This document shows, in pieces, positions 23,180 to 46,811 of a stretch of DNA of 64,000 bases (its first letter is position 1; each line of letters starts with the position of its first letter). The DNA is from Cellvibrionaceae bacterium (GTDB taxonomy: Bacteria > Pseudomonadota > Gammaproteobacteria > Pseudomonadales > Cellvibrionaceae), in NCBI GenBank assembly GCA_965262305.1, contig CBDHEY010000002.1, forward strand, positions 657,135-721,134, given 5' to 3'. Made by a program: the position numbers and the translations under genes. The notes beneath the pieces were generated by a model, which saw only the letters and a program-made list of their open reading frames with translations, did no database searches and was not told the origin of the DNA.

Positions 23180-23312
23180 TGATTACTTGAACCTTAATGC
23201 CTGCTTAATTTTGTATTTTAAAGAAAAAGAGGAAGAATTACTGATTAACGGGACAAAGACGTCATTGTACCAGAAATCTATACATATTCCTCAAGCTTGA
23301 ATTTTGAGGTAA

Positions 23313-24206
23313 TCACCTGTCGATTTGACGTTTATTTGATCTGTAGACGACATGAGGCGGAGGGTAATTCTTGAGTAGTAGTGCCTGACGGAACTTCTGC
23401 AATTCAGCATTGTTATCAAATGGGCCTACCTGAACTTTAAATAGTGGCGACCGTGATTGGGATTCGTTCACACCGGGAAAAAGGACATCGATTGGGTAGT
23501 GGGTTATATTCCTTAATTCTGCTTTGAGCGCATCGGCGTGTGAAAGATTGCTGAATGCGCCAACTTGGAGGTAGGTGTTTTCTGGCAGTTGGAATCCTGC
23601 TGAGTTCTTGGGCATTGGCGCCAGTTTTTCGGATTTATGCTTTTCATCTAAAGGTTTTTCGGGCGTATTTGCCGATTTGTATGTTTTGGGGTCAATATAG
23701 GTAACTAAGACTTTGGCGGTACCTTTTTCCACAAAACCGAGTTTCTTCGCAGCAGAGTAAGTAAGGTCAATCACCCTTTCATCGTGAAATGGCCCTCTAT
23801 CATTGATACGTACGATAACTGAAAGGTTATTTTCGGTATTTGTGACTCTAACATACGATGGAATGGGTAATGTTTTGTGAGCTGCCGTCATACCGTACAT
23901 ATTGTATATTTCGCCATTCGACGTTCGCCTACCATGAAACTTTCGCCCATACCACGAGGCTATGCCTGTTTCGCTATAGTCTTTTGGGGATTTAATAATA
24001 TGGTAAGTCTTTCCTCTTACTTTGTACGGGCTTTTATTCCCAGATTGGCTTAGGGGTTCCATCATTGGAACCGCATCTGGAATATGATCAACCCGAAGGG
24101 GTTCTTCCGGGTAGCTGTCTTTCTCTTCCACTACTCCGTAGAATTCGCAACCTGAAAATAAAACGCCTGATAAAAGCGTCAAAATTATTTTGCGCGAACG
24201 CGTCAT
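23313..24206 (-). CDS. rlpA: Septal ring lytic transglycosylase RlpA (DPBB domain plus C-terminal SPOR domain)
   Basis: Lipoprotein signal (LSGVLFSGC). ASWYG...HG..TSNGE DPBB motif. C-terminal SPOR-like region. Confidence 0.88.
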   Translation of the reverse strand: MTRSRKIILTLLSGVLFSGCEFYGVVEEKDSYPEEPLRVDHIPDAVPMMEPLSQSGNKSPYKVRGKTYHIIKSPKDYSETGIASWYGRKFHGRRTSNGEIYNMYGMTAAHKTLPIPSYVRVTNTENNLSVIVRINDRGPFHDERVIDLTYSAAKKLGFVEKGTAKVLVTYIDPKTYKSANTPEKPLDEKHKSEKLAPMPKNSAGFQLPENTYLQVGAFSNLSHADALKAELRNITHYPIDVLFPGVNESQSRSPLFKVQVGPFDNNAELQKFRQALLLKNYPPPHVVYRSNKRQIDR

Positions 24207-24224
24207 TCGATTCTCATCCTTAGT

Positions 24225-24788
24225 TTATTTCGCCTTCTTTACCTTAGACTTGCGAGCGGATGTGTGCCACAAATAAGCGAAAATTACTCCGCCCAATGCG
24301 CCACCTATGTGCGCTTCGAAAGAAATGTACGCTGACACTGGTAACAACCCATAAATCATGCCACCTTCTAGTAATATCACAAGAGTTGCGTACAAAACAT
24401 AGACAATTTTTTTTTCGAAAAATGCCCTAAATATTATTAGCGTCCACATTCCAAATATTACGCCACTGGCTCCTATGTGGATTCCTGGGCGCGCGACGAG
24501 CCACACAAATAGGCCACTGAATAGCGCCAAAAAAATCAAACTACTATAAAAATAGGTTTTACCCAAACCTACTAAGAAAAATGAAAAAAGTAAAAAGCCT
24601 ATTGAATTCGAAAGTAGATGTTCAATATTACCATGAAGAAATGGCGCACTTAACACATAAAATAGGTGCTCATTAGATCTGGGCAAAACACCGAAACGAC
24701 TTAAGTTCAGTGAGAAGTAATGATCCACAATAAATACGAGAATTAAAATCAATACGATGTTTATTGCCGTGCGATAGTTTTTTAGCAA
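24225..24788 (-). CDS. Rhomboid-family intramembrane serine protease
   Basis: Six TM helices with the catalytic GASGVIFG (GxSG) and AHIGGALGG (His) motifs. 187 aa. It is the last gene of the mltB-rlpA insertion. Confidence 0.8.
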   Translation of the reverse strand: MLKNYRTAINIVLILILVFIVDHYFSLNLSRFGVLPRSNEHLFYVLSAPFLHGNIEHLLSNSIGFLLFSFFLVGLGKTYFYSSLIFLALFSGLFVWLVARPGIHIGASGVIFGMWTLIIFRAFFEKKIVYVLYATLVILLEGGMIYGLLPVSAYISFEAHIGGALGGVIFAYLWHTSARKSKVKKAK

Positions 24789-24858
24789 TTCGGCTCCAAT
24801 GGAGTTTTACTTATTTAAAAGTGCTTAAGCTTTAAAATAGTTGAATAATCAACTCAAA

Positions 24859-27800
24859 CTAGCTGTTGAACGTTTGTTGGGTTGATGTGGTTTCAACATC
24901 AATTTTTCGCAGTTCTTCTAATACTTGTTGCATTTTGTCATGCGTTCTTAAATCGATTTCTAACTTCTTATCCATACTTCTAACGAGTGGGAAGATACTT
25001 TCTTCAATTGTTTTGGCAAGTGTATTTAATATTTTATCAATTCCTGGAACGGGTTGGTTAACAACCTCGATGTTTGTTGTATTGGGTGTTGTTTTTTCTT
25101 GTGCGGTTGAAAGTTTTCGTAAACTGGCTTCGATCTGTTGAAGCTCTCTTATACCAGCTTTTTGCATATCGTTAGATGCTGTTGATTTCGCTACTTCTGT
25201 TAATGTCGAAATGTTATTTGCCAAATCAATAAGTTGTGCGACGACGCGTCCACCTATATCGGCACTGTCACCACCCATTGCTTTATTTCTCATAAAGTCT
25301 TCTTTTATTTGCTCCCAGCGCACGCGAGACTTATCTGAAAACTGATTTCTTAACTCTTCTAGTTTTAAGAGGTTAGCTTCCGCGCCGGTTGTAAGCATTT
25401 GAGCCTCACCAAGATAATGATCTTCGATCAGTTGCTGGAGCTCATTTTCATTCATTACAGAAGATACTTTCTCGGCCATCTTGTTCATGTTTCGATAGCT
25501 ACCTTGGAGTTTAAATGGTGGTTCAGTCCTATATTTATCATCTTGCGCTGCAGATGCGATATATTCTAAGTTGATTTTTAATATTACATCTTGAATGACA
25601 AAAAGCTTTTTCAGTACTGATGTTATTTCGTTCACCTCGGCCACCGAATATTGGTGGTTCAGTTCCGAAGTTACGATATTTTTCCCTTTAGCTAAATCGA
25701 TTAGCTTATATATATCTGACATTTCTCTAGTCGCTAAAGGCGCAAGAATTGCGTTAGACGTTAAGCTGTTTTCGATGTAACTCAATGCAAATTGTTCGTC
25801 CATACCGCCAAGAATATCGCCAAGGTTATAAATATCTGCACGGTTAGCCAACATATCTGGTACTTTGAATGCTTCGCCAGCTTCCGTGTAAGGGTTACCA
25901 GCCATGACAACGCAGAATTTTTTGCCTCTCATGTCATAGGTTTTAGTTTCATTTGCCCAAACCCCTTCAATACGTCTTGTACCATCGCAAAGAGAGATAA
26001 ATTTCTGTAAAAATTCTGGATGGGTATGTTGAATATCGTCGAGATAAAGCATAACGTTGTTACCCATCTCGAACGCAAGATTTACTTTCAATAATTCTTG
26101 TTTAGCTGTCGCGTTTGGTGCCTGTGATGGATCCAGGCTCAAAACATCATGTCCAAGGGAAGGGCAATTGATTTTCATGAAAATTAGCCCTAGACGATTT
26201 GCTACGTATTCCATTAACGTCGTTTTCCCATATCCGGGTGGAGAAATCATCATTAACAATCCCATTAGATCTGATCTTTTGTTTTCTCCAACGGTGCCCA
26301 TTTGTTTCGCTAAGTTATCACCGATTAACGGTAAATATGATTCATTCACTAGTCGATTACGTACGAAAGAACTAAGCGGCCGAGGTTTGTATTGATCTAG
26401 CCTCAGGTTACTCTTTTCTTGATTAATGAGTTTTTGGCGACAATGTAAATAATTTCGATATCCTAATACAGTTTCTGTTGCGTGGGTCTCCAACCTTAGT
26501 AGAAACTCATCGAGGTCAAATTTAAGGGATTGGTTCTGGATCGTTTCATGGTTACCTAGCAAGCCCGAAGCCGTGGTTTTGAGATCAATTTCGGTGTTCC
26601 TTCTTTCAATTCTCTCTTCGGTATTAATGAGTGCAATTGCTTCCGGAATATATCGCTCTAGATGTTTGAGTGATTTATCTGCGACTAGAGCTTTCAACCA
26701 GGCTTCTGTGAGTTGCCATCTTTCTGCTGGCCAACCGAGCATTTTTTCCAGCGATGTTTGTAGTTTTCGCCAGGCAGTTTCGCTCATTTCAAGTTTTAGC
26801 TGATCAACAAGTTCTCTAGCATACTTGCTTGATACAAATTCCATACGATCTCTGCTAAGTTCTTCCGTTAAGTATTCTGCGCTTCGGCGGATCGTAATGC
26901 TCGTAATATCAATAGAGTGCTTTCCTATGAATTCATTTAATGCTGATTCAATTTCATTCTCAAGTAAATTTTTCGCCATATTGCTAGCAAAAATATCGCG
27001 CATTTGCGAAGCTGTGATCGAGCGATCCCTCCAAGTTTCATAACTTAGTTGAGAATCAGAAAGTTTAGTGTTCTGCTTAAGTCGAGTAACATACTTAATA
27101 TTTGCCCAAAATATTTGGGCTATTGCGCGTGATTCTGGATCAAATTTCAATAATTCGGCATTGGTGAGAACGGGATAAATTGCCTTTATTATTTGAGCCG
27201 CGTCAAAATCGTGTATGCCTTTTTCGTAACCTTCTTTATAGAGCGGCGTAGCGAAATCTCTTACATGACTTAGTAGCAATTTTTCATCATTTATTAGCGC
27301 ACCCAGTTTGTTACTTTTCGGACTTTTTAATATTTGATATGCAAGATACTCAGCGCGATAGACGTGAGGTGATTCCGATTCTATGTTTAGATCCCAAAAA
27401 TCGCTTAGATTGTTTAGCGCAATGTCCGTGACGAGTTCGTAATAGTCTGTGCCCGATAGATGGAAATAGAGTTGATTGTTTCGAGGAATAATCGTGAGAT
27501 CAAGCTCTTGGGTATTAACACTAAACCTATGACGAGGTCCAAGTTTTATTACTTTTCCACCATCCTCATAAATATCAGCTTTGTCCCTTAATGATCTAAA
27601 GGCATTGTCTTTTAAGTGTTTTATTTTTGCACTAATGTCGTCAGCTTTAACGCTACTAGAAAGTGAATTTAGCTGATCAACCATTTCATTTATTTTTAAT
27701 ACAAGTGCATCTGACGCAAAATAAGTATTAAGCTCGTCTTGCTCTTTAAATTTCAGTATTCTCCGATCTATGCTCGCCAATATGCGCTCAGCCGCATCAA

Positions 27801-30126
27801 AAATGTTCTGTGCTTTTCGTTGTTGAGCTTCCAACAACTGTTGCTTATGAGCTTCAAATGCTTCGTAAATTTCGTCTCGTTTAGCGAGTATATCTGCTAA
27901 AAATTGATCAAATTCACTGAATTGACTTTCTAATTCTTCTAATTGAACGAGAAGCCTTGAGAGTTGTTCATCGCATTTTTCTGGGGTTGTAGCCAGGCCC
28001 AAGGCGTTATTGATACTTTGTGAAAATAGTTTGAATTGTGCGGAGAACTGTGCGATCGCTTCGTCGGAACCCAGTGCTTTGCGTTTATTTTCGGTTTTCG
28101 CTCTGCATTGATTTAGTTTTGCATAGACTTCTGAAATAGCATCAATGATTTGTGTTCGAATGGTTGAATCTTCAATTTGAATTGTAGTCATTAATTCGGA
28201 AATTAAATCTAGCGCAGACGCGGTTGACTCAATTTCTTCTAATATCGGCTCAATGCTAGCTTTAGTTTTGGATTTATCTAGTTCTTTCGTAAAGGAATCT
28301 ATTTTTAATAGATAAGGTTTGATCGCCTCAGGGGAATTTAAAAACTGGACCGTTTTTTGTGAAAGGTTTTCTTCAAAAATTTTAAGTTCTGAATCGAGAG
28401 AGGCGATCCTTTCTTTATCAATATAACGATATTCAGAAATAGTTGCCAAGTGTCCGCGTTGTTGTCGTATACGCTTTAATGCTGCTACATAATCTCCAGT
28501 GTCTTCCCAGTTTTCCGGTCGAATGTGAGATTGAATGTCTTTTTGAGTTTTCTCTGCAGTGTCGAGCGCTTCTGCAGATTTTGCTTGAATAGATTGAATT
28601 TTTTCAAACTCGTCAATTACTAATTCAGCAGTTTCGCCGACGTCTTGCAAGCAGTTTTTTATTTCACTTGTTTCGTCTGAATTTAACCAATAATAACTAT
28701 CGAATAACTGTCTCGAATTTCTTGCCAGCTCTTCATAAAGAAAAGCTGTCACTTTTTGATTTTCAATCGCACGACAAATACTTAGTAGGTCAGATATCCC
28801 TCTTACGAGCTCCGCATTACCAATACGCCCATAAAAATTTTGCTTTTGTGGAATTTTAGCGGCGAACTCATCACTTATATAGGGAGTTTTCCAAACTTGC
28901 ATAGGATGAACCCGTGTAGGTTCATTTTCTGCCGTGAAGATAACGAGTGTTCCATCATCTGCAAGGGCATAACCGTGTCCATAGATAGGATTTTGTAGGG
29001 TCTTGTTTATCAGGTTGTAGGTTAAGAGTCCAACTATTCCATCTTCTGGTTCGTAAAAAATATATAAGACGTCTTCACCATTAGGCGATCTAATTGTGCG
29101 CTTATAAGTAAGAGAGCTATTATTAGCTTCAAATTTTTTGTGTTCTCCTGTTTGTAAATAATATCCACCAGGAAAGATTACACCATGATCTTCTGGAAGC
29201 TGCACGCAAGACTGACCTAATTCATCAATTCTAACCACTTCTTTAGTTAGTTTATTGAAAATTAAGTATCGCCATTGTTCCTCGCGATATGGTAGGACCT
29301 TAATTAGAATTAACGAGCCAACTGTGGCGTATGCCATTTCTGCATCATCTAAGGATTGTGTCTTGTCTTCCACTGGCTCGTTGTATATTCCTAGGCCGTC
29401 TTCCGTGTTGTTTTCTACCTTGACCGTTAGCGTTCCGCCCACAGTTTCAACAAAGACTTCATCCTTAATATTTGCGTGGGGGTGACGGCCGTGGATAGTG
29501 TCTTCTCTTGTTATGTTCTTCCATTCAAAGTCATTTTTAGGGGGCAGTTGTAAATCTCTTTCACCGCGGTTGTCGATATATTCAATTTTTTTTCCATCCG
29601 GTGATATGCCCCAGCGAAACACCCGAATATCTTCTATACGATCGCCAATTTGAAACCCTGCGAGTAATTTCCCATTTTTATTTACCAGTTGTAGAAGTTT
29701 TGCTTTTTTGTAATATCGATATAATTCAGAAAAATCATTCAGAAACCGAGTTTCGTATAGAAACGTTTGGCCTAGAGGTATCTCTTCTAAACTAGTTTCG
29801 TCAGCATCGAGTAGTTTAACAACCGAGAAAACATCTTCAACTTTGGTTTCTTTTTTGAGTCCGATGAACACGTTGTATCCGAATATCAATAATTCACCGG
29901 CTTGTACGATGTCTCTTGCAATTGAATTATTTCCGGTTCTAATACGGACTCGGCCTATAATAGCAAGTTCAGTACTGCCAAATTCCTTTAAACGACTTTG
30001 GTTTAAATTGTTACTTAGTTCACGAAGTTTTTTTCCTTGTTCATCTAAGCGTCTGCGGATAATTTCATACGCGCCACCTTCGGCTACGGCATTATCGATA
30101 ATGTTGCTGCTATTGTCGGTTTCCAA
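24859..30126 (-). CDS. Giant (1755 aa) multidomain protein: beta-rich N-terminal domain, ~800-aa coiled-coil region and C-terminal AAA_5 (MoxR/McrB/dynein-type) ATPase
   Basis: Single uninterrupted ORF. Walker A ISPPGYGKTTL, Walker B VMLYLDDIQH and an AAA_5-type sensor/Arg region VVMAGNPYTEAGEAFKVPDMLANRADI, all near nt 25840-26270. Long heptad-rich stretches fall between residues ~450 and ~1250. The N-terminal ~450 aa are rich in beta-strand-type sequence (YIFYEPEDGIVGLLTYNL...). Confidence 0.75.
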   Translation of the reverse strand: METDNSSNIIDNAVAEGGAYEIIRRRLDEQGKKLRELSNNLNQSRLKEFGSTELAIIGRVRIRTGNNSIARDIVQAGELLIFGYNVFIGLKKETKVEDVFSVVKLLDADETSLEEIPLGQTFLYETRFLNDFSELYRYYKKAKLLQLVNKNGKLLAGFQIGDRIEDIRVFRWGISPDGKKIEYIDNRGERDLQLPPKNDFEWKNITREDTIHGRHPHANIKDEVFVETVGGTLTVKVENNTEDGLGIYNEPVEDKTQSLDDAEMAYATVGSLILIKVLPYREEQWRYLIFNKLTKEVVRIDELGQSCVQLPEDHGVIFPGGYYLQTGEHKKFEANNSSLTYKRTIRSPNGEDVLYIFYEPEDGIVGLLTYNLINKTLQNPIYGHGYALADDGTLVIFTAENEPTRVHPMQVWKTPYISDEFAAKIPQKQNFYGRIGNAELVRGISDLLSICRAIENQKVTAFLYEELARNSRQLFDSYYWLNSDETSEIKNCLQDVGETAELVIDEFEKIQSIQAKSAEALDTAEKTQKDIQSHIRPENWEDTGDYVAALKRIRQQRGHLATISEYRYIDKERIASLDSELKIFEENLSQKTVQFLNSPEAIKPYLLKIDSFTKELDKSKTKASIEPILEEIESTASALDLISELMTTIQIEDSTIRTQIIDAISEVYAKLNQCRAKTENKRKALGSDEAIAQFSAQFKLFSQSINNALGLATTPEKCDEQLSRLLVQLEELESQFSEFDQFLADILAKRDEIYEAFEAHKQQLLEAQQRKAQNIFDAAERILASIDRRILKFKEQDELNTYFASDALVLKINEMVDQLNSLSSSVKADDISAKIKHLKDNAFRSLRDKADIYEDGGKVIKLGPRHRFSVNTQELDLTIIPRNNQLYFHLSGTDYYELVTDIALNNLSDFWDLNIESESPHVYRAEYLAYQILKSPKSNKLGALINDEKLLLSHVRDFATPLYKEGYEKGIHDFDAAQIIKAIYPVLTNAELLKFDPESRAIAQIFWANIKYVTRLKQNTKLSDSQLSYETWRDRSITASQMRDIFASNMAKNLLENEIESALNEFIGKHSIDITSITIRRSAEYLTEELSRDRMEFVSSKYARELVDQLKLEMSETAWRKLQTSLEKMLGWPAERWQLTEAWLKALVADKSLKHLERYIPEAIALINTEERIERRNTEIDLKTTASGLLGNHETIQNQSLKFDLDEFLLRLETHATETVLGYRNYLHCRQKLINQEKSNLRLDQYKPRPLSSFVRNRLVNESYLPLIGDNLAKQMGTVGENKRSDLMGLLMMISPPGYGKTTLMEYVANRLGLIFMKINCPSLGHDVLSLDPSQAPNATAKQELLKVNLAFEMGNNVMLYLDDIQHTHPEFLQKFISLCDGTRRIEGVWANETKTYDMRGKKFCVVMAGNPYTEAGEAFKVPDMLANRADIYNLGDILGGMDEQFALSYIENSLTSNAILAPLATREMSDIYKLIDLAKGKNIVTSELNHQYSVAEVNEITSVLKKLFVIQDVILKINLEYIASAAQDDKYRTEPPFKLQGSYRNMNKMAEKVSSVMNENELQQLIEDHYLGEAQMLTTGAEANLLKLEELRNQFSDKSRVRWEQIKEDFMRNKAMGGDSADIGGRVVAQLIDLANNISTLTEVAKSTASNDMQKAGIRELQQIEASLRKLSTAQEKTTPNTTNIEVVNQPVPGIDKILNTLAKTIEESIFPLVRSMDKKLEIDLRTHDKMQQVLEELRKIDVETTSTQQTFNS

Positions 30127-30214
30127 AACTGTTTTCCTTCAAAAAATGACTATACTTTGGTCCGAGAAATACTCAACAAGTAAATAGTGAGACAGAAATT
30201 TCTCTTGGTATAGC

Positions 30215-30754
30215 TTAGACTCTATAAGGGTCGTCCGATATTAAATACGCAATGATTTCAGCTTTGTGGTTAGATGATTGAACTATTGATCGCATAGCTT
30301 TTATTTGCTCAAAGTTTTCTTCAAACTGTTTTTGATAAAGTTCTTCGAGCATATCAGTCGTTTTAGCCTCCCGAACTTTTCTTTGCCAAACATCTGTAAA
30401 TATCTCGTTAAGTTTCAACGATAATCCACTATTTTTGAGTAGTTCCCACTCGCCATGATCCAACCAAATGGCATTTCTACTTGGGCTCAGATCCAAGCGA
30501 TGTTCTGTGGAAGCGGCTATTCTATATTTAATCATGAGATTTCCAGATTCAGGGCACAGTAGCGCCCTGTTTGACTCAGTAGCTTCAATCTCGAAATCAC
30601 CTACTTCATCCCTGATAGAACTTTGTTCCTTCCATTTCAGATAGTCCTGTAAATATAAAAAATTACCTTTACAGTTTGAACATCGCTTAGTGGGTAGAAA
30701 GGGTTCTAGAAAATGGTTAACCAACTTACCTTTGTTACAGCTAGTGCATTTCAT
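30215..30754 (-). CDS. Zinc-ribbon protein (zf-TFIIB-like C4 ribbon at the N-terminus plus a second, Cys-depleted copy)
   Basis: N-terminal C-x2-C...C-x2-C (CTSCNKG...CSNCKG). A second module, LLCPESGNLM...AIWLDHGEWELL, resembles the GvWlD.gEl zinc-ribbon tail but lacks three Cys. Confidence 0.55.
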   Translation of the reverse strand: MKCTSCNKGKLVNHFLEPFLPTKRCSNCKGNFLYLQDYLKWKEQSSIRDEVGDFEIEATESNRALLCPESGNLMIKYRIAASTEHRLDLSPSRNAIWLDHGEWELLKNSGLSLKLNEIFTDVWQRKVREAKTTDMLEELYQKQFEENFEQIKAMRSIVQSSNHKAEIIAYLISDDPYRV

Positions 30755-30769
30755 TTTAATCGCTCGTTC

Positions 30770-31009
30770 TTACAACCCGAATTTGGACTTGATTTCGCTA
30801 ACTCGCTGAATCATAGTTTGGTCCAGGTCTTTATCATTGAGCCTTGATATAATATTGCTTAGAACACGTTTCTCGTTCTCATCAACTACACCATCTCGCA
30901 GCGCAACGTCTACGAGGCCGTTTAATTCATCTACATCTAGCTTGCCATCATCTGCAAAACAATTGATAGATTTGAATGTCAGCTCTAAATAATCGCGTGA
31001 TTCGCTCAT
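30770..31009 (-). CDS. Small acidic hypothetical protein (79 aa; TerB/DjlA-N-like repeat character)
   Basis: Tightly packed between the flotillin and zinc-ribbon genes (15-16 bp gaps). DGKLDVDELNGLVDVALRDGVVDENEKRVL pattern. Confidence 0.4.
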   Translation of the reverse strand: MSESRDYLELTFKSINCFADDGKLDVDELNGLVDVALRDGVVDENEKRVLSNIISRLNDKDLDQTMIQRVSEIKSKFGL

Positions 31010-31025
31010 TTTGTTCTCCTTTTTC

Positions 31026-32975
31026 TTAAGGTTTTTCAGGTGTGTTTACATTTTGTGTGCCATTTTTAGGTTCCATAAACTTGGTAAGCAGAGCGTTGAT
31101 GGTGTCACTTTTTCCTGCTAATCCATCTATTGCTTTACCGATGGAAAGAGATTTCGCGAAATTGTTGAAGAAGTGATCTTCTCCGCCAACGATGTCGATT
31201 TTCGCTTTTTCAAGAGCTGTTGCAAGTACTTCGGCATTTTCTTTAGCAATGTTCTCTCCGGCATCTATTGCTGCAAGTGCTTCCTTCAGAGCCGTTTCTA
31301 AAGACATTCTAAACTCTTCGTGTTCTCTCGCTTTATCACTCATACTATTCATCGCATCGAATTTTTCTGTTAGTCCATCAGCTTCTGCTTTGAATTGTTC
31401 TCTCGTAACCTCGGCTTTAGCAGTACCAACTTGCTTCTCTGCTAGTGCTTCAGATTCTCCCTTCGCTGCGATTATTGATGCTTCTGCAAAACCTTCTTTT
31501 TCTTTTGCTGTTGCTTTGGCTTCTAAAACCTTTGCCTCTGCAATGCCTTCTTTTTCTAACGCATCGGCTTTAGCTTCTTGTATTTTTGCTTCAGCCAACC
31601 CGGGCGCAGCCACTTCTGCCTGAACTCCTTCTGCAAGTCGCTTCTTGGAATCGGCTTCTTTCGCAGCAGCATCAAGGTTTGCTTGGGCTATTGTAATTAT
31701 CTCTGCTGATTTGTGTTTCGCCGCTATTTCTTCAGCCTCAGCAGCTTTTATTTGTTTAACCTTTTCTTCTTCAGCTTTAGCTTCTGCATCAAGTATTTTT
31801 ACTTGTTTTTGACGGTCTGCTTCGGAAACTTCTCTAACCTCATTTATTCTTTCTTCTTCGATTGCAACTGTTTTATCAACAGCAATTCGTTCTCGGATAA
31901 CATTGGCAATTTCTTTCTTTTTAACTTCGATCGCTTTTTCAGCTTCAATGCGTTGAAGTTCCACTTCCCTCTCACGAGATACAATTTCAAGATCTCTTGC
32001 TCGAGCTACTTTTTCTTGTTCAATAGCAACTGCTCTCAATCGATTTTGTTCAGCAACTTCGATTTCACGCTGTTGGTTTTCTTTCTGGACGGAAAGGTCT
32101 TGATTAACTGAAATAGTTGTTTCTTCAGATTTCTTGCGTTCTTCTTCTTGTACTTTAATAGTTTCAGCTTCTTCTCTAGCTTCAATCGATGCAACTTCAC
32201 GTGATTGTCTAGCAATGGCATCTTTTTCTTGCTTGTCGAGTTCTAGAAGAGCCTCTTTGGTCTCGACATTCTTTTTAGTTATAGCTAGTTCTTCGTCTCG
32301 CTCGAGAATATTTGTTCTCACATTTTGGGTTGCGGTAAGTTCGGTAATCTTTTTTATACCTTCTGCGTCCAAAATATTGTTTGGATCTAGATCGGATTTT
32401 GGTGTTTGTTCTAAATAATCAATTGCAACATCTTCAAGAACATAACCATTTAGATCGTCACCAATAACCTGCACTATCTTCTCTCTGAACTCAAGGCGGT
32501 TTTCAAATAGTTGTACGAATTCGATTTGTTTTCCCACCGTTTTTAACGCTTCGGAGAATTTAGCATTAAAGAGTTCGTTAACCGCTTCCTTGTCTGAAGC
32601 TCGGGCAGCTCCAATGGATTTAGCAACTTTTAAAACATCTTCTGCAGTTTCATTTACTCTTAGGTAAAATGCTACGGTGATGTCAGCTCGCATATTGTCT
32701 GCACAAATAAGGCCGTCTTTACCTCTGCGATCAACTTCGAGCGTGATAAGTGAAATTCTCATTAACTCTTTTTTATGAATTACCGGCCATACTAAGGATC
32801 CTGTAAATGTGACCTTTGGTACTGACTTCATAGTGTTTACAATAAGCGCAGTACCTTGTTCAACCTTAATATAAAAAGCTTTAAATACTGTGATAATCGC
32901 CATTAGTAAAATAAATGCTACGACGATTATTGCGGCGATAAATGCTACCCCGGAAAGACCTGATAATTCGGCCAT
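31026..32975 (-). CDS. Flotillin-family SPFH/band-7 protein (YqiK/FloT-like) with a long E/A/K-rich coiled-coil tail
   Basis: N-terminal TM helix. SPFH domain. An extended EA-rich coiled coil (EAEKAIEVKKKEIANV...) with internal imperfect repeats (KEGIAEAKVLEAKATAKEKEGFAEA). 649 aa. Confidence 0.85.
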   Translation of the reverse strand: MAELSGLSGVAFIAAIIVVAFILLMAIITVFKAFYIKVEQGTALIVNTMKSVPKVTFTGSLVWPVIHKKELMRISLITLEVDRRGKDGLICADNMRADITVAFYLRVNETAEDVLKVAKSIGAARASDKEAVNELFNAKFSEALKTVGKQIEFVQLFENRLEFREKIVQVIGDDLNGYVLEDVAIDYLEQTPKSDLDPNNILDAEGIKKITELTATQNVRTNILERDEELAITKKNVETKEALLELDKQEKDAIARQSREVASIEAREEAETIKVQEEERKKSEETTISVNQDLSVQKENQQREIEVAEQNRLRAVAIEQEKVARARDLEIVSREREVELQRIEAEKAIEVKKKEIANVIRERIAVDKTVAIEEERINEVREVSEADRQKQVKILDAEAKAEEEKVKQIKAAEAEEIAAKHKSAEIITIAQANLDAAAKEADSKKRLAEGVQAEVAAPGLAEAKIQEAKADALEKEGIAEAKVLEAKATAKEKEGFAEASIIAAKGESEALAEKQVGTAKAEVTREQFKAEADGLTEKFDAMNSMSDKAREHEEFRMSLETALKEALAAIDAGENIAKENAEVLATALEKAKIDIVGGEDHFFNNFAKSLSIGKAIDGLAGKSDTINALLTKFMEPKNGTQNVNTPEKP

Positions 32976-33002
32976 GTTGTGCTCCTTAGTTACAATAATG
33001 TA

Positions 33003-33656
33003 TTAGTTAGAATTGAATTCGTTTTCAGAAATTACTGAATAGGTTCCTGATTCTTCATGTCTTTCGAGTAACACTACCTTGTCTCCTTTGTTGAATATTT
33101 TATTGTTTCGGCTTCTCACTCTTAGAAGTAATCCTGCTCCGCCGTCTTCGAGAATAGCTTCTCCAAATTTGTCATCAACACGGCTGGACCTAACTACTGC
33201 AACTTGGCCAATAACGTGTTTTATTGAAGGCGCTTCCATTTGTTTAAAAAGCTTCCTTAAGGGTTTGATTACAATTGTTGTAATCAGAACCGATATATAA
33301 AAAACGCATGCCATAATTCCAATGCCTACAACGAACTCTAGCGTGCGACCCGGAATAAAAGGGTTTATTAGTGCGACGGCAATATAACAGAGTATCCATC
33401 CTGTAAGTGACAAAATGGTGATGATGATAGGTAGAGGCACTCCATTTAATCCTATCTTCATAAGTACGCCACCGATCCCGCCTATGTTTCCTTCCGCTAT
33501 TTCAATTTCAAAAGCATCTATATCAAAAACCCCGAGTATCGATACAAGCCAGAATAAAACACTAAACCCCAAAAAAAACGTAAAAACAACTGTTGGAAAT
33601 GAGCTAATGTTGTTGTAGAACGGGCTCATCCCTTCATGTAATAAAATTGCAAACAT
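33003..33656 (-). CDS. NfeD/YqiJ-like membrane protein (flotillin partner; C-terminal OB-fold)
   Basis: Several TM helices followed by a C-terminal soluble beta-domain (GDKVVLLERHEESGTYSVI). Immediately upstream of the flotillin gene, as in yqiJK and yuaFG operons. Confidence 0.7.
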   Translation of the reverse strand: MFAILLHEGMSPFYNNISSFPTVVFTFFLGFSVLFWLVSILGVFDIDAFEIEIAEGNIGGIGGVLMKIGLNGVPLPIIITILSLTGWILCYIAVALINPFIPGRTLEFVVGIGIMACVFYISVLITTIVIKPLRKLFKQMEAPSIKHVIGQVAVVRSSRVDDKFGEAILEDGGAGLLLRVRSRNNKIFNKGDKVVLLERHEESGTYSVISENEFNSN

Positions 33657-33726
33657 GTCACACCCTTAACAATGGTTATTGAATTGGGCAATATTAATCG
33701 CGCACGTCCATTGTGCAAAGTAGAAA

Positions 33727-34413
33727 CTATTTTTTGTTTTTGATTCTCTCTAGCACACTTGAAGCGTCTGTGCCTTTGGGCGCGATTCCAGCTTCTTCAA
33801 GTTTAACCTGAAGGTCTTTATCTTCGAATTCGTCAGCAAGCTCGGATGCGGCTTTCATTTTTGCGGCTTTCATTGCTTGTTTTTCTTTAATGCGTTCTAG
33901 TGAATCCATAGCTGTTCGAAGCTTTGAGTTGGAACCGCTATGCCTCTCCGCGACGGCTTCTTGAGCCCGCTGCACGCTTTCAGTGGCTTTGACTGTGTCG
34001 ACCTGTTGCTGCATACGTTTGATGTTCGTTTCAGCTTGCTTAATCGATAAGCGCAATTGCTCTGCTTGCGCATGGAAACCTTTTATCGCTTGATCTTCTG
34101 TTGCTAAATTATTTTCCAGATCGGCAATTTTTTGAGCGATCTCTAACGCTAGATTTTCATCATTTTTATCGAGCGCTTGGGAAGCATAGTCTTCGTATTC
34201 GCTAATTTGCTTTTTTATCGAGCTAAACTTTTCCTCACCTATTTTTTTGTGTGCGATGATCGAAGCTAAGCCTTCCTTACTGTTTTTAACTTCTTCGGAC
34301 GCATCTCTTAATTCTTGATCCAAAATTCTGAGTGCCTGACTATCCGTAATTGCTTCGCCGGCTTCATTAATTCCGCCTCTAAGAGCTGTTATCATCTTTG
34401 CCCAAACATTCAT
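33727..34413 (-). CDS. PspA/IM30 (Vipp1) family protein
   Basis: 228-aa all-alpha coiled-coil protein. N-terminal MNVWAKMITALRGGINEAGEAITD fits the PspA amphipathic helix region. ESCRT-III-like heptads throughout. Confidence 0.8.
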   Translation of the reverse strand: MNVWAKMITALRGGINEAGEAITDSQALRILDQELRDASEEVKNSKEGLASIIAHKKIGEEKFSSIKKQISEYEDYASQALDKNDENLALEIAQKIADLENNLATEDQAIKGFHAQAEQLRLSIKQAETNIKRMQQQVDTVKATESVQRAQEAVAERHSGSNSKLRTAMDSLERIKEKQAMKAAKMKAASELADEFEDKDLQVKLEEAGIAPKGTDASSVLERIKNKK

Positions 34414-34425
34414 TTTAATGCTCCT

Positions 34426-35058
34426 TTATGCTGTTACTTCTGCAGATAAATTTAAAAATTCACTATAAGCCTCTGTAGCTTGAATAACGTTAGAAGCTAA
34501 AACTTCTATTTCAAGTATCACATTGCTAATTAGAGATGATGCGCTCAACGCCCCGAACATGTGGTAGTGATCTGGATGCCCTTTAACGCTCTCCAGGCAA
34601 ATCGTTGATAGTGGAAAATACTTATGTGTTTTAAGTACCGCCTCGTTAAAGCTGGCTTTATCAACCACGTCTTCGATTGACCATAGAACACATTCAACAA
34701 TGATTTGGTCACCAACAACAGATAAGTAAACAGGTAAATCGCCAAATTCTCGCATTTCGATTAAAAGGCTTGGTTCTATGCCATTTATGAGCTCGATTCT
34801 AGCCTGTCCAGTTCTAAATAGTGCTTGTTCTTTGAGCTCTTTAAGTAGTTCCACGGTAGTCCACGATTTTGTAACACCTTTCATAGGTTCTTCTCCTAGT
34901 TGCTGTTTTAAACCTTCCGCGGTCCGCAATTTCATCTCAAGTTTTGAGAGTGTTTTGCTGTGCTGTGGGAGAACCCAGACTTCCTTTTTTATAAGTCCTT
35001 GCTCGCGCAGTCTTTTGCGGTATTCGCGTTGATAATGTGCTGAAGATTTCGCTTTCAT
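34426..35058 (-). CDS. YjfI-like (DUF2170) domain protein with a basic N-terminal extension
   Basis: The C-terminal ~130 aa (LPVYLSVVGDQIIVECVLW...FNEAVLKTHKYFPLSTICL...MFGALSASS) fit the DUF2170 pattern found upstream of pspA-like yjfJ in E. coli. Residues 1-60 are Lys/Arg-rich. The family assignment is from memory. Confidence 0.5.
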   Translation of the reverse strand: MKAKSSAHYQREYRKRLREQGLIKKEVWVLPQHSKTLSKLEMKLRTAEGLKQQLGEEPMKGVTKSWTTVELLKELKEQALFRTGQARIELINGIEPSLLIEMREFGDLPVYLSVVGDQIIVECVLWSIEDVVDKASFNEAVLKTHKYFPLSTICLESVKGHPDHYHMFGALSASSLISNVILEIEVLASNVIQATEAYSEFLNLSAEVTA

Positions 35059-35075
35059 GAAGTTACTCTATAGTA

Positions 35076-35130
35076 TTACATGTGATTTTTCAATAAATTA
35101 CATGTAATTTTTATAATTATTACATGTGAT
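35076..35130. promoter_or_regulatory. Three copies of a palindromic TTACATGT(G/A)AT motif at exact 22-bp spacing upstream of the flotillin/PspA island
   Basis: Copies at 35076-35086, 35098-35108 (ATTACATGTAAT, a perfect palindrome) and 35120-35130. They lie 18-72 bp upstream of the first gene of the eight-gene minus-strand cluster. Confidence 0.5.
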
Positions 35131-35240
35131 AATTTTTTACTGTTTGGATAGAAGTCTAATTTATTGATTTTAAAGAACTTTATTTTTTGGGAGCTGGCGA
35201 TGGTTTATGCCATCGCATGAATGGATTATGACAGGAGGTT

Positions 35241-36227
35241 TTAGAGCTTAGCTTTGATCTTTTGACTTAACTGCCATACCGCCATTGCGTAAAGTCGGCT
35301 TCGGTTATAACGTGTTATTACGTAATAATTGTGGAAGCCCAACCAGTATTCATCTCCATTTTTTCCGTAATAATGAAGAGGCTTAACATTGAGGTTTTCA
35401 TCAAGGCCTTTTTGAGTCGGGTTAAAACCCATTGATTTGGCTTTGCTAAGGGGTGTATTAGGTTTTCCTTTTTTGTTGAAAAGCGTTTTGTCGAGTTCTT
35501 CAGGGAAACGCATTCGAACGAGAGTGGGTTCACCCTCGCGCCAACCGTGTTTTTTGAAATAGTTTGCGACACTACCGATAGCGTCGGCTGGGTTGTTCCA
35601 GATGTCTGCAACACCGTCTTCTGTAAAATCGACAGCGAAGTCGCGATAGCTACTTGGTATAAATTGCCCATAACCCATAGCGCCGGCATAAGATCCTTTT
35701 AGTGAAAGCGGATCAAGTTTTTGTTCTTTGGATAGAAGAATAAATTCCTGTAGTTGCTTACGGAAAAATTTTCCTCGTTTAGGATAGTCAAATCCAAGAG
35801 TAGCCAATGCATCGATTACGCGGAATTTGCCTGTATGTCTTCCATAACGAGTTTCAACTCCAATAATGGCTACAATGATTTCTGGTGACACCTGGTATTT
35901 CTTCGAAGCGGCGGTGATTGTCTCCTTGTGTTTATTCCAAAACTCAACGCCCTGCTGGATACGTTTATCGCCTAAAAATATATCTTGATACTCATCCCAT
36001 TTTTTTGTTTTTTCTGCTGGGCGAGATATGGCATCTAAAATGGATTGTTTTTTTTCAGCTTGTTTGAGTAGATCAAGTATTTCTTGTTTGTTAATGTTAT
36101 TTTCTTTTGCGAGTTTGTTTACAAAGTCATTTGCAAGTTCGTGATCTGAATAATCAGCAAAAACTAAAACGGGATAAAAAATCAAGATCGAAATAGTTAA
36201 AAGTGTGAAATGAAAGTTTTTAAACAT
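35241..36227 (-). CDS. mltB: Membrane-bound lytic murein transglycosylase B
   Basis: GSYAGAMGYGQFIPSSY and RYGRHTG motifs of MltB/SltB. Signal sequence. Confidence 0.88.
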   Translation of the reverse strand: MFKNFHFTLLTISILIFYPVLVFADYSDHELANDFVNKLAKENNINKQEILDLLKQAEKKQSILDAISRPAEKTKKWDEYQDIFLGDKRIQQGVEFWNKHKETITAASKKYQVSPEIIVAIIGVETRYGRHTGKFRVIDALATLGFDYPKRGKFFRKQLQEFILLSKEQKLDPLSLKGSYAGAMGYGQFIPSSYRDFAVDFTEDGVADIWNNPADAIGSVANYFKKHGWREGEPTLVRMRFPEELDKTLFNKKGKPNTPLSKAKSMGFNPTQKGLDENLNVKPLHYYGKNGDEYWLGFHNYYVITRYNRSRLYAMAVWQLSQKIKAKL

Positions 36228-36315
36228 AACGTGAAAATTAATCCTTTGTATTGACGATAGAATCTCGAATTCATTCTATAGATTCCGACTAAGACGTTCT
36301 AGTGCTTAAAACGTA

Positions 36316-37467
36316 TCATGTTGTCGTTCTCTTTTTTTCGGTGGAAATTGCCATCAGTATCCCAAATCCTGACATCAAAGTGACTATAGAAGTTCCCCCT
36401 AGACTCACCATTGGAAGTGGCACTCCTACAACAGGTAAAACTCCCGAGACCATTCCAATATTTACTACTACATATACAAAGAAGGTCAGTGTGACGCCTC
36501 CAGCCAGTAATCGGCTAAAATTATTTTGGGCTTGCCAAGCAACATAGAGGCCGCGTGCGACAATTAGGCTGTAAAGTCCAATTAACAAAACAACACCAAA
36601 TAAACCAAATTCTTCTGCTAAAACGGCGATAATAAAATCTGTATGACTTTCTGGTAAAAATTCGAGTTGAGATTGCGTTCCTTGCATCCAGCCTTTTCCT
36701 TCCGTACCACCTGATCCTATTGCTGTTTTTGATTGAATAATATTCCAACCAGAACCGAGTTTATCTTCTTCGGGGTTGAAAAGAGTGAGAATGCGTTGCT
36801 TTTGATAGTCTCGTAGCACGAAATGCCACATGGGCCATAGGCTTGCCACTACTAGGCCTATGCTTCCAAATATATATCGCCAGCCTATGCCCGCCAAAAA
36901 CAACACAAGAAGTCCGGATGTCGAGATCAGAATCGAAGTACCTAGATCCGGTTGTTTCAGTATCAGTATTGTAGGTAAAAAAATCACCACTAAACAAACA
37001 GAGATGTGTTTAAATTTTGGCGGGAGCATTCTCTCTGATAAGTAAGAAGATATCATAATTGGGACGGCAAGTTTTAAAACTTCGGAGGGTTGAAAACGAA
37101 TAAACCCTAAACTTATCCAGCGTTTTGCTCCATTCACATCAACGCCAATGAAAAACACAAGTATTAAAATGGCAAGACCAAGTAGGTAAATCCAAGGTGC
37201 GATTCGTTTTAGAAAGCTTATCTTAACCTGTGAAACAAAAAACATTGCTATATATGCTATAAAGAAGAACAGTATTTGTCTTTTCAACATAGCTTCGTTT
37301 TGTCCGCTAGCACTGTATAGAACGATCAAGCCATAGCTAGTAAGCGCTAAGAGAAGACTCAAAAGTATTGGGTCGATATGAAGTTTTTGCCAAATACCCA
37401 AGCCGCGACCGAAATGAAATGTAGAATCAGGTAAGTGTCGAACAAAGTCTTGGTTATTATTGTTCAC
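36316..37467 (-). CDS. mrdB: Peptidoglycan glycosyltransferase RodA (SEDS family)
   Basis: 10-TM SEDS protein with SEDS motifs (DLGTSIL, FIIAVLAEEFGLFG). Overlaps the mrdA stop. Confidence 0.92.
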   Translation of the reverse strand: MNNNNQDFVRHLPDSTFHFGRGLGIWQKLHIDPILLSLLLALTSYGLIVLYSASGQNEAMLKRQILFFFIAYIAMFFVSQVKISFLKRIAPWIYLLGLAILILVFFIGVDVNGAKRWISLGFIRFQPSEVLKLAVPIMISSYLSERMLPPKFKHISVCLVVIFLPTILILKQPDLGTSILISTSGLLVLFLAGIGWRYIFGSIGLVVASLWPMWHFVLRDYQKQRILTLFNPEEDKLGSGWNIIQSKTAIGSGGTEGKGWMQGTQSQLEFLPESHTDFIIAVLAEEFGLFGVVLLIGLYSLIVARGLYVAWQAQNNFSRLLAGGVTLTFFVYVVVNIGMVSGVLPVVGVPLPMVSLGGTSIVTLMSGFGILMAISTEKKRTTT

Positions 37468-39361
37468 TGGATGCTAGGCCCGCACTTTGAAGTTCAATTT
37501 TTTCGTTTAGTCGCTTTTGTGACACAAAGTATTCATCAAAAACTTTTCTGGCTATCGGGGCGGCTGTTTTTGAACCATGCTCTCCGTTTTCAACAATAAC
37601 CGCTACCGCAACTTGAGGAGAACTCGCAGGCGCGTACCCAACAAACAATGCATGATCTCGTAACCGTTCTGCGATTTGATCTCTATCGTATTTTTCATCT
37701 TGTGGAATACCAACAACTTGTGCGGTACCTGTTTTGCCAGCAATTAAATAATCAAGGTTTTTGTTTATTATTTTGGCTGTTCCCATCCGTCCGTGAACCA
37801 CTCCTTGCATTGCATTGTCGACATAATCCCAATATTCCTCGTAGACTTCTACTTGTGCTACAAGCTCAGGGTCGATGATTTTCTTGCCCTGTTGTTTAAC
37901 CAAGTGAGGTTTAAATCTTTCACCACGAGTCGCAAGAGTAGCTGTCATTACCGCGAGTTGGAGCGGTGTTGTTAATACGTCTCCTTGTCCAATACTCATA
38001 TTTAAACTATTTCCTGGGTACCAACTTAGTCCACGAGTGTTTCTTTTCCAATCTCTAGACGGCCATAAGCCTGGTCTTTCGCTAGGAACATCTATTCCCG
38101 TTCGTTTTCCCAATCCAAATAAGTCGCCAAATTGATGCATTCGATCCACACCCATACGAAAAGCAAGGTCGTAGAAATAGACATCACATGATTCGACTAT
38201 AGCTTTGTATAAGTCTGTTACGCCGTGCCCTTCTTTTTTCCAGTCACGATATAAGCGATCGTCATTTTCTAACTGGTAAGAACCATGACATTGCAATACC
38301 GATTTTGCCTCAATGATTTTGTGGTGCAATCCCCCCAGTCCAAGCATCGGTTTTAACGTAGAGCCAGCAGGGTATTGGCCTTGAGTCGTTCTGTTGAAAA
38401 GTGGTAAATCAATAGAGTCATATAGCGCTTGATAATTTTCATAGCTAATGCCTGTAACGAATAGGTTAGGGTCATAAGTGGGCGCGCTTAGCATTGTTAA
38501 TATCCCACCAGTTTTTACATCTATTGCGACAACAGCGCCTCGACGACCTCCAAGGGCTTTATAAGCTGCAGCTTGCATTGAGCGATCTAAATGAAGATGC
38601 AAGTCTCTTCCCGCTTTTGGGGAATCTTCACGAATGACTTTTAGAATTCGGCCATGGGCATTGGTTTCTATGTATTCATTTCCAACGCGTCCTAAAAGTC
38701 GTTTTTCATAAAATTTTTCCAGGCCAATTTTTCCGATGGAGTGCGTACCGGCATAACGGGCATAGTCTTTTTCAGAAAAGTCATTGAGTTCTCTTTCATT
38801 TATTCTTCCTACATAACCAATTGTATGCGCAAATAGATCGCCAAAAGGGTAGTGTCGAACCAATTGAGCATCTACTTTGACGCCTTTCAAGCGATACTTA
38901 TTCACTGCTATTAAAGCGATTTCATCTTGGGTTAATTTGTACCTAAGCGGTATTGGTTGGTAGGGGCGTCGACGTTGTTTTAGTGCTTTATCAAAGTTTT
39001 TTCGATCGGTATCGCTGACTGAAACAATAGTAGCTACTTCATCTATGGTTTTCTCTAAATTTTTTGTTTGTTCTTTGATAATTGATAAGGTGAAGCTAGG
39101 GCGGTTTTCAGCAAGGATTTCACCATGTCTATCAAATATTAATCCCCGGTTTGGTGGCTTAGGACGCACTTGAATACGGTTTTGGTCAGATAAAGAAAGG
39201 TAGTCTTTATGGTAAGTGACTTGGAGTATATAAAAACGGGCGATAAGCCCACTAAAAATAAGAAGAACGATCAACATCGATATGACAACCCGACGGGTAA
39301 ATATTCCGCTTTCGGATGCATGATCTTTAAAATGATGATGTTCCTCTGGTGACCAAATCAT
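37457..39361 (-). CDS. mrdA: Penicillin-binding protein 2 (elongasome transpeptidase)
   Basis: STLKP (SxxK), SCD (SxN-like) and KTGTA motifs. N-terminal TM anchor. 634 aa. Confidence 0.92.
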   Translation of the reverse strand: MIWSPEEHHHFKDHASESGIFTRRVVISMLIVLLIFSGLIARFYILQVTYHKDYLSLSDQNRIQVRPKPPNRGLIFDRHGEILAENRPSFTLSIIKEQTKNLEKTIDEVATIVSVSDTDRKNFDKALKQRRRPYQPIPLRYKLTQDEIALIAVNKYRLKGVKVDAQLVRHYPFGDLFAHTIGYVGRINERELNDFSEKDYARYAGTHSIGKIGLEKFYEKRLLGRVGNEYIETNAHGRILKVIREDSPKAGRDLHLHLDRSMQAAAYKALGGRRGAVVAIDVKTGGILTMLSAPTYDPNLFVTGISYENYQALYDSIDLPLFNRTTQGQYPAGSTLKPMLGLGGLHHKIIEAKSVLQCHGSYQLENDDRLYRDWKKEGHGVTDLYKAIVESCDVYFYDLAFRMGVDRMHQFGDLFGLGKRTGIDVPSERPGLWPSRDWKRNTRGLSWYPGNSLNMSIGQGDVLTTPLQLAVMTATLATRGERFKPHLVKQQGKKIIDPELVAQVEVYEEYWDYVDNAMQGVVHGRMGTAKIINKNLDYLIAGKTGTAQVVGIPQDEKYDRDQIAERLRDHALFVGYAPASSPQVAVAVIVENGEHGSKTAAPIARKVFDEYFVSQKRLNEKIELQSAGLASSEQ

Positions 39362-46757: not shown

Positions 46758-46811
46758 TTGTATAAGTGTCTTTATATTATTTTTATTAGTGACTGTATAA
46801 ACTCAATCTAC

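Follow-up and report, generated by a model that had tools for sequence, protein, structure and literature searches.

In a 64,000-nt stretch of a Cellvibrionaceae genome (contig CBDHEY010000002.1, positions 657,135 to 721,134; hereafter "the window"), three palindromic boxes precede bacA, a yjfI-like gene that heads a cluster of eight genes and is orthologous to the first gene of the biofilm-associated cluster (bac) operon of Pseudomonas aeruginosa. Because they are conserved across orthologous promoters, which is the decisive support, the boxes are regarded on comparative grounds as a genuine operator whose conservation extends from this genome to P. aeruginosa. The reader of the boxes is most likely BacA itself, the product of the cluster's own first gene, which would contact them through a small N-terminal domain. 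The overall reading, which we consider likely, is that BacA represses its own operon through three boxes placed over a leaderless sigma70-type promoter, and that bacA also gives rise to a second isoform.

Direct sequence search places TTACATGTGAT at window positions 35076-35086 and again at 35120-35130, and TTACATGTAAT at 35098-35108, which yields the box sequence TTACATGTRAT with a period of exactly 22 bp; TRF reports a repeat at 35075-35130 with 2.5 copies and a period of 22. The proximal box 1 (ATTACATGTGAT, 35075..35086), box 2 (ATTACATGTAAT, 35097..35108) and the distal box 3 (ATTACATGTGAT, 35119..35130) carry no strand assignment. An initial annotation had described three palindromic boxes at exact 22-bp phasing (35076, 35098 and 35120), the middle copy being a perfect 12-bp palindrome and all of them lying 18-72 bp upstream of the YjfI-like start codon; this description was borne out, the palindrome being located at 35097-35108 and the ATG at 35058-35056 on the minus strand. 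The window is AT-rich (40.6% GC), so lone box-like sites are not rare: four sites with at most one mismatch from TTACATGTAA are found, compared with a mean of 3.0 in dinucleotide shuffles, and the fourth site (46889-46898) is a singleton within the open reading frame (ORF) 46812-47255, consistent with chance. In 300 dinucleotide shuffles of the window, neither a cluster of three sites spanning at most 60 bp nor a pair with a spacing of 20-24 bp was seen. The number of single sites is thus ordinary, whereas the clustering of three phased copies is unusual.

For comparison, 80 loci encoding long-form relatives of BacA were collected from one-genome-per-species contigs (81 loci with the window), covering Cellvibrionaceae, Spongiibacteraceae, Hahella, Oleispira, Oleiphilaceae, Reinekea, Bacterioplanes, Methylococcales, Sedimenticola, bivalve symbionts and others. 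When boxes with at most two mismatches are counted over the 150 nt that precede the ATG, every one of the 81 loci has between two and four: two in 46, three in 30 and four in 5, a third or fourth box thus being present in 35 of 81. Successive box centres are mostly 21-24 bp apart, 62 of 81 loci have the proximal box centred at -22.5 or -23.5 relative to the ATG, and a box occupies the spacer between the -35 and -10 hexamers in at least 70 of the 81. The 201 boxes give the consensus (a)T-T/c-A-C-A-T-G-T-A/g-A(t), in short TYACATGTRA, in which T, ACATGT and A are 98-100% invariant, while the flanks and the sequence between the boxes vary across loci, with the exception of the -35 hexamer. At a tolerance of at most one mismatch, 181 boxes fall within the 12 kb of promoter zones (150 nt in each of 80 loci), compared with 9 in the remaining 494 kb, a density ~800-fold higher in the promoter zones than in the flanks; all nine outside these zones are singletons with a broken ACATGT core. 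The proposal of the initial annotation that the boxes are a candidate operator for the whole cluster is supported by these 80 loci together with P. aeruginosa and a divergent plasmid paralogue of the same layout.

The initial annotation had overlooked three features: the overlap of the boxes with a sigma70-type promoter, a leaderless transcript and a second, internal translation start. The promoter consists of a sigma70-type -35 hexamer TTGAAA (35088..35093, minus strand), with TTGACA-like hexamers at the equivalent place in other loci, and a -10 hexamer TAGAGT (35065..35070, minus strand), which ends 6 nt before the ATG with AACTTC in between. The ATG of long BacA (35056..35058, minus strand), which is not preceded by a Shine-Dalgarno sequence, coincides with the transcription start site (TSS) predicted from promoter geometry and from the P. 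aeruginosa TSS. Relative to this predicted TSS, the 10-bp core of box 1 (35076-35085) spans -18 to -27 inside the -35/-10 spacer, the core of box 2 spans -40 to -49 directly upstream of the -35 hexamer, and that of box 3 spans -62 to -71. The dyad-symmetric boxes thus overlap or adjoin the -35 and -10 hexamers in the window, and the same geometry recurs over the 81 loci: the two proximal boxes flank the TTGACA-like hexamer and a TAnnnT hexamer follows the proximal box, the spacer of 17 bp seen in the window is found in 71, the end of the -10 hexamer is 6-7 nt away from the ATG in 72, and a Shine-Dalgarno-like 4-mer precedes the first ATG in just 7. A leaderless mRNA is predicted for the window because the -10 hexamer ends 6 nt before the ATG and there is no Shine-Dalgarno sequence.

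In P. aeruginosa, the leaderless architecture is confirmed by a mapped TSS. The locus (L102) was found by a search with the sequence of PDB entry 8q8o, which led to a 206-aa long form (P0273, 268 member sequences). Its upstream region reads ATTACATGTGAGCTG-TTGAAA-TC-TTACATGTGA-TCTCG-TAGTGT-GAGTCC-ATG, that is, two boxes 22 bp apart in a high-GC genome. Differential RNA sequencing of strain PA14 (Wurtzel et al. 2012) placed a TSS for PA14_16140-16150 at 1374599, 177 nt upstream of the annotated start at 1374776 (5' untranslated region of 177 nt). At L102 the long-form ATG lies at 1501 and the annotated internal ATG at 1678, again 177 nt (59 codons) apart; the PA14 TSS therefore is the A of the long-form ATG. 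For the window, the leaderless architecture is deduced from the identical geometry. A sigma54 promoter for the bac operon, raised by Wallart 2024 (PMC10948618), is rejected on the basis of the mapped TSS and of the window sequence: since the TSS is the long-form ATG, the proposed sigma54 promoter falls inside the long-form coding sequence, and no sigma54 site (TGGCAC-N5-TTGCW, -24/-12) was found within three mismatches between 34106 and 36028, including the intergenic region 35059-35240. Likewise, a Pfam scan of 10 proteins, seven encoded in the cluster and three upstream of it, gave no match to a sigma54-activator family. Separately, a stable hairpin, GCGAUGG-CAUAAA-CCAUCGC, is predicted on the minus strand at 35198-35217 (-11.2 kcal/mol, z = -3.6), 24 nt past the stop codon of the MltB-like gene; the tract that follows it is A-rich and not U-rich, unlike in a canonical intrinsic terminator, but it may insulate the bac promoter against upstream transcription.

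The long form of BacA (210 aa, 34426-35058, minus strand) carries a CesT/Tir-like DUF2170 domain at residues 65-202 (Pfam PF09938; 159.5 bits compared with a cut-off of 27, E = 5e-47). It matches PDB 8q8o with E = 1.5e-36 and scores just below the cut-off of the NCBIfam BacA equivalog NF050185 (290 bits; cut-off 300), model positions 1-205 of 206 being aligned from residue 1. Ahead of the DUF2170 part stand 58 residues starting MKAKSSAHYQREYRKRLREQGLIKKEVWVLPQHSKTLSKLEMKLR, of which the first 45 (codons 1-45, 34924..35058, minus strand) form a basic helix/extended/helix segment, the proposed DNA-binding domain (N-domain), so assigned on the strength of conservation, AlphaFold2 (AF2) models and a relation to PF11455. 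Among 120 homologues of ~208-210 aa, conservation along the protein is highest in these 45 residues, with many invariant positions, and a variable linker follows. Pairwise nucleotide identity of the N-domain over the 80 loci is 0.745, 0.846 and 0.447 at the first, second and third codon position, respectively; the N-domain is therefore translated and constrained as a peptide, with third positions free. AF2 models long BacA with helices at 6-19 and 31-44 around an extended segment at 20-30 (pLDDT 70-85), a disordered linker at 53-62 and then the CesT-like fold; the isolated N-domain is modelled with moderate confidence (pLDDT 69) and shows the order helix-strand-helix in the monomer. In view of this model, a ribbon-helix-helix-like dimer of the N-domain is a conjecture.

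By sequence, the nearest relatives of the N-domain are the PF11455 MazE-like antitoxins (formerly DUF3018). A profile search of 1.84 billion representatives with the N-domain returned just 159 relatives, among them stand-alone proteins of 44-60 aa that share the pattern R-x-R-x-R-x-x-G-L-V-K-x-E-V-W-V-x-P-E; of 45 such stand-alone relatives, 21 match PF11455, down to E = 9.6e-5. The N-domains of BacA orthologues match PF11455 in 33 of 49 cases at E <= 1 (best 0.003), all below the family threshold, and hhalign of the N-domain against four true PF11455 members gives E = 5.5e-5. Distant homology is likely, while the N-domain scores below what Pfam requires for membership of the family. The gene downstream of bacA encodes a PspA/IM30 protein and not a toxin; the BacA system may act in the manner of an antitoxin-type autorepressor, but it is not a toxin-antitoxin module. 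In the literature searched, whose coverage is incomplete so that an earlier description is possible, no description of the operator or of the N-domain of BacA was found.

Boxes and N-domain occur together in all 81 bacA loci, in P. aeruginosa and in a paralogue on the Pseudomonas megaplasmid pQBR103, whose N-domain is 48% identical, whose operon has the yjfJKLMC composition known from E. coli and which is preceded by three boxes (TTTCATGTAA, TTACATGAAA and TTACATGTAA). E. coli yjfI, the single negative control, has neither the N-domain nor an upstream box. A second gene system shows the same association: in four GC-rich metagenomic loci (L106:1487-1753; L107, boxes at 181-211 on the reverse strand; L141:1805-2383; L173:716-1339) two copies of GTTACATGTAAC, 21-24 bp apart, stand directly upstream of genes for bona fide PF11455 proteins of 70-74 aa (81-95 bits, E 1e-23 to 1e-27), and each of these genes overlaps a PemK/MazF toxin gene. 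Type II antitoxins classically repress their own genes by binding to palindromes in the promoter, and the arrangement suggests that TTACATGTAA may be an operator of the PF11455 family; neither this link nor DNA binding by PF11455 proteins was found described in the literature searched. As two unrelated gene systems share only this domain and the same operator sequence, the BacA N-domain is the candidate that binds the boxes. The initial annotation had seen no regulator gene in the cluster and had placed the cognate factor elsewhere. The former statement does not hold, given that the first gene has a conserved 45-aa basic N-terminal domain co-occurring with the boxes, and the latter is disfavoured by the relation of this domain to PF11455, whose genes bear the same boxes in the four metagenomic loci.

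The predicted internal translation start is the in-frame ATG of Met59 (34884-34882), from which 8 nt separate an embedded Shine-Dalgarno sequence, GGAG (34896-34893; whole element 34882..34896, minus strand); sequence and conservation predict that a short, DUF2170-only product begins there. GGAG is found 9-14 nt ahead of an in-frame ATG in the variable linker in 77 of 82 loci, and exactly 12 nt ahead, counted from its first G, in 67. The Gly codon of the embedded GGAG is GGA in 75 of 75 cases, compared with 12% GGA elsewhere in bacA, and the residue after this Gly varies (E, V, D, G, A), every one with a G-initial codon; the fixed GGA followed by a variable residue therefore indicates selection on nucleotides and not on amino acids, which points to an embedded Shine-Dalgarno sequence. 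In P. aeruginosa, the short protein that was annotated and crystallised starts at AAGGAGG-N6-ATG. PDB 8q8o (146 aa), which begins four residues before a conserved Trp and lacks the N-domain, and the PA14_16140 annotation both correspond to the internal start, and the 59 upstream in-frame codons (L102:1501-1680) encode the conserved N-domain. To judge from these sequences, bacA is probably translated into two proteins, a long form from the leaderless start and a Shine-Dalgarno-driven short form without the candidate DNA-binding module. In three long-form bacA genes of Methylococcales/Crenotrichaceae (L049, L064, L068) the usual internal Met and GGAG were absent in the first scan, and the second isoform may not be universal. 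A candidate for a genuine short-form gene (P0275, 145 aa) lies at a contig end and is uninformative.

These features can be combined into the following mechanism. Transcription would begin on the A of the bacA ATG (35058), and the leaderless ORF would give long BacA, in which a flexible linker joins the 45-aa basic helix-strand-helix domain to a dimeric CesT-like DUF2170 domain. A BacA dimer would place its two N-domains onto one 10-bp palindrome, and the 22-bp phasing, about two helical turns, would set two or three dimers on one face of the DNA and thereby allow cooperative binding. The operator of a dimeric, cooperative regulator had been proposed in the initial annotation; the conserved sequence, number, spacing and promoter position of the boxes in the 80 other loci lend support to this idea, and cooperativity is probable. 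With box 1 in the spacer and box 2 abutting the -35 hexamer, RNA polymerase would be excluded and the eight-gene operon would repress itself. Both of these box placements are of the repressor type, and the net effect of operator occupancy likely is repression. Consistent with this, a P. aeruginosa bacA::Tn mutant accumulates BacB-F (PMC10948618). Translation from the Shine-Dalgarno-dependent start at Met59 would provide short BacA devoid of the DNA-binding domain. An AF2 interaction probability of 0.981 has been reported for BacA with the PspA-like BacB (PMC13092808), and short BacA is, speculatively, the working partner of BacB, the role that it would probably have in this mechanism; equally speculative is that it may form one-armed heterodimers with long BacA, which would weaken repression.

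More tentatively, and with the odds somewhat against it, BacA may be a two-isoform switch in which an antitoxin-type DNA-binding module is fused to a domain with the fold of type III secretion system (T3SS) chaperones, the long form repressing and the short form and/or BacB tuning. If so, the tuning would resemble conditional cooperativity of toxin-antitoxin systems or heterodimer poisoning, membrane stress and the balance of leaderless and canonical translation would set the output of the operon, and a regulatory logic not described before would apply to PspA-family systems in many Gammaproteobacteria, including P. aeruginosa.

Several observations weigh against autorepression by BacA or make it less secure. 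The N-domain of the window protein scores 15.0-15.4 bits against PF11455 (E ~0.02), below the gathering threshold of 22 bits, and the hhalign probability is no more than 66%. Relatives with a solved structure were found neither with a sequence profile against the PDB nor with Foldseek on the AF2 model, and the order in the ribbon-helix-helix superfamily is strand-helix-helix, whereas the BacA N-domain is modelled as helix-coil-helix. Stand-alone relatives of the N-domain with 45-60 aa in phage-like contexts (P0242, P0194) lack TTACATGTAA boxes upstream. A metagenome scan for TTACATGTAA-N11-14-TTACATGTAA yielded at least 120 loci, and the matches listed comprise 13 bacA promoters (15 with weaker ones) and 4 mazE-like genes, the rest being other repeats, so the box pair is not unique to the bacA system. 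In the Hahella-type loci (L012, L015, L024 and L026, from Hahella and one Cellvibrionaceae metagenome-assembled genome), two boxes lie upstream of the -35 hexamer and none in the spacer, an arrangement that, by its sequence, represents a variant operator layout. Finally, the sole functional evidence for repression comes from the bacA mutant of PMC10948618, a MAR2xT7 insertion that was not complemented and was grown with gentamicin; the raised levels of downstream proteins could stem from transposon read-out, and the sign of regulation is to this extent confounded.

The sub-threshold scores of the N-domain for every DNA-binding family in Pfam, together with the occurrence of the box pair in many unrelated metagenomic contexts, where other proteins may read similar palindromes, would also fit an operator that is read by a separate regulator encoded elsewhere, the N-domain having another role. 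This is unlikely: such a regulator would have to track the N-domain over Cellvibrionaceae, Hahella, Oleispira, Methylococcales, Sedimenticola, Pseudomonas and a megaplasmid, and would have to be missing where the N-domain is missing, as in E. coli, yet no conserved regulator gene adjoins the loci, and the same boxes precede the PF11455 antitoxin genes, which have only the N-domain in common with BacA. Of similarly low probability is that the N-domain binds the boxes with activation, or a dual effect, as the net result, the boxes centred at -44.5 and -66.5 recruiting RNA polymerase and box 1 repressing at high occupancy. Class I and class II activator site positions are known from CRP-type promoters, and the two box centres lie near such classical positions; the Hahella-type loci retain upstream boxes only, and the transposon-mutant evidence for repression is confounded. 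The spacer box in at least 70 of 81 loci, however, is at a position typical of repressors, the -35 and -10 hexamers already are near consensus, and the mutant proteome shows BacB-F up and not down. Still far less probable is that the repeats are not protein sites at all and represent a repetitive extragenic palindrome (REP)-like, iteron-like or DNA/RNA structural element. Unrelated metagenomic and viral contigs do contain TTACATGTAA pairs and arrays in the form of hairpin-type or tandem repeats, but in the bacA loci the position of the boxes relative to -35, -10 and ATG is fixed within ~1 bp over distant genera, their location upstream of the mapped TSS means that they are not in the RNA, the sequence between them is unconserved except for the -35 hexamer, and a singleton is the sole further copy in the 64-kb window.

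Repression by BacA, the reading preferred here, would govern the eight genes together, which presumably form one operon. The seven co-oriented genes downstream of bacA (24225..34413, minus strand, gaps of 12-88 nt) encode, in order, a PspA/IM30 protein (33727-34413; Pfam), a 217-aa protein (33003-33656) and a 649-aa protein (31026-32975), both without family match, a 79-aa protein (30770-31009) without convincing family match, and, by family match, a Zn-ribbon protein (179 aa, 30215-30754), a DUF3686 plus AAA+ ATPase protein (1755 aa, 24859-30126; Pfam) and a rhomboid/rhombosortase-like protein (187 aa, 24225-24788). In P. aeruginosa, bacA-F was shown to be an operon by reverse transcription PCR (PMC10948618). 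Comparative genomics has defined an operon class that combines a CesT/Tir-PspA dyad with a band-7/flotillin protein and an AAA+ ATPase (PMC11237479); of the likeness of the window cluster to this class, Pfam confirms only the PspA and AAA+ ATPase components, the 649-aa protein having no Pfam match. The cluster (within window 21998-39361) stands between an MltB-like gene, which is upstream and follows the genes for PBP2 and RodA, and rlpA/dacA. This fits the "island" of the initial annotation, with the bac cluster inserted in an otherwise typical cell-wall gene run PBP2, RodA, MltB, RlpA, DacA.

The closest known system is the P. aeruginosa bac operon (BacA = PA3732/PA14_16140), which shares the orthologous first gene, a PspA-family second gene, a similar multi-gene organization, the box-promoter layout and the embedded Shine-Dalgarno sequence; the window has eight genes, and its BacA is ~60% identical. 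Wallart 2024 (PMC10948618) used the short 146-aa form, proposed BacA as a negative controller of the operon and described neither the N-terminal domain nor the operator. The E. coli yjfIJKLMC operon encodes a DUF2170 homologue (YjfI, 30% identity) that lacks the N-domain, and its upstream region lacks the boxes. In the E. coli psp system, the sigma54 activator PspF is held in check by PspA; feedback through a PspA partner on a PspA-family effector operon is likewise proposed for bac, the promoter of which in contrast is sigma70-type and leaderless, with no sigma54 site found in the interval searched. PF11455 antitoxins paired with PemK/MazF resemble BacA in a small basic N-terminal module of the form helix-GL-strand(-W-)-helix, in the TTACATGTAA palindrome pair 21-24 bp apart over their own promoter and in a C-terminal part that binds a partner; this part is a folded CesT-like domain in BacA and a toxin-wrapping tail in the antitoxins, and the genes downstream of bacA belong to a PspA membrane-stress system instead of a toxin. 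T3SS-chaperone-coupled regulation (ExsC-ExsD-ExsA, CesT-CsrA, SicA-InvF) also ties a CesT-fold dimer to gene control, by partner switching, whereas BacA would carry chaperone-fold domain and DNA-binding module on one polypeptide, as a covalent fusion. MetJ/Arc-type operators are tandem short palindromes read by dimers with face-of-helix phasing; the bac operator similarly has repeated palindromic boxes, of 10 bp at a 22-bp period in contrast to the contiguous 8-bp units of met-boxes. Repressors translated from leaderless mRNA, as proposed for BacA, are represented by the autoregulators lambda cI (from PRM) and Tn1721 TetR. The Tn5 inhibitor is an internal-start protein that lacks the DNA-binding N-terminus and still dimerises; an N-terminally truncated in-frame isoform of this kind is predicted for BacA, where both starts lie on one transcript.

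Operators in which palindromes overlap a promoter and serve autoregulation are, as a kind of control element, well known. New, in that the literature searched yielded no description of them, are the specific operator, the unannotated antitoxin-like candidate DNA-binding module fused to a CesT fold, the leaderless-plus-internal-start design and, most likely as far as sequence comparison goes, the control of a PspA-family operon by sigma70 and an autorepressor. YjfI/BacA-PspA operons are widespread in Gammaproteobacteria, and their control was previously unclear; in P. aeruginosa, the bac operon affects biofilm formation, rhamnolipid production, swarming and virulence. The analysis offers a control circuit for them, comprising a defined operator, a sigma70 leaderless promoter with published TSS support, a candidate BacA DNA-binding domain and a predicted second isoform. 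It also suggests that the published picture be revised with respect to the crystallised BacA, which is the form without the N-domain, and to the sigma54 promoter, and it suggests that the PF11455 "MazE-like" antitoxins probably recognise the same palindrome as BacA.

Further repeats were observed, some of them with a similar core. The metagenome scan was discarded as a specificity test for the box pair, as most of the matches listed are other repeat types. Many of these (L108-L225, e.g. L113, L126, L147 and L150) are intergenic pairs of an extended palindrome, CTTTACATGTAAAG, with 6-10 nt between them, and no BacA-N-like ORF was found within 330 nt of such pairs; other matches are tandem arrays of at least three TTACATGTAA units. 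The CTTTACATGTAAAG pairs and the TTACATGTAA arrays are different repeat families with a common core. Viral contigs scanned for the box pair gave 18 matches, which are phage repeat arrays or lie upstream of terminase-like genes, none adjoining a BacA-like gene. Within the window itself, TAAGTTGC(TTTAAG) is repeated three times at 2736-2779 with a period of 18 bp, 10-55 nt upstream of the ATG at 2790 of a 494-aa ORF on the plus strand, and may represent another operator-like array. An imperfect 23-bp direct repeat (ATTTGTATAAGTG.CT.TATA) is located at 46756-46799, in the gap between the minus-strand ORFs 46248-46757 and 46812-47255.

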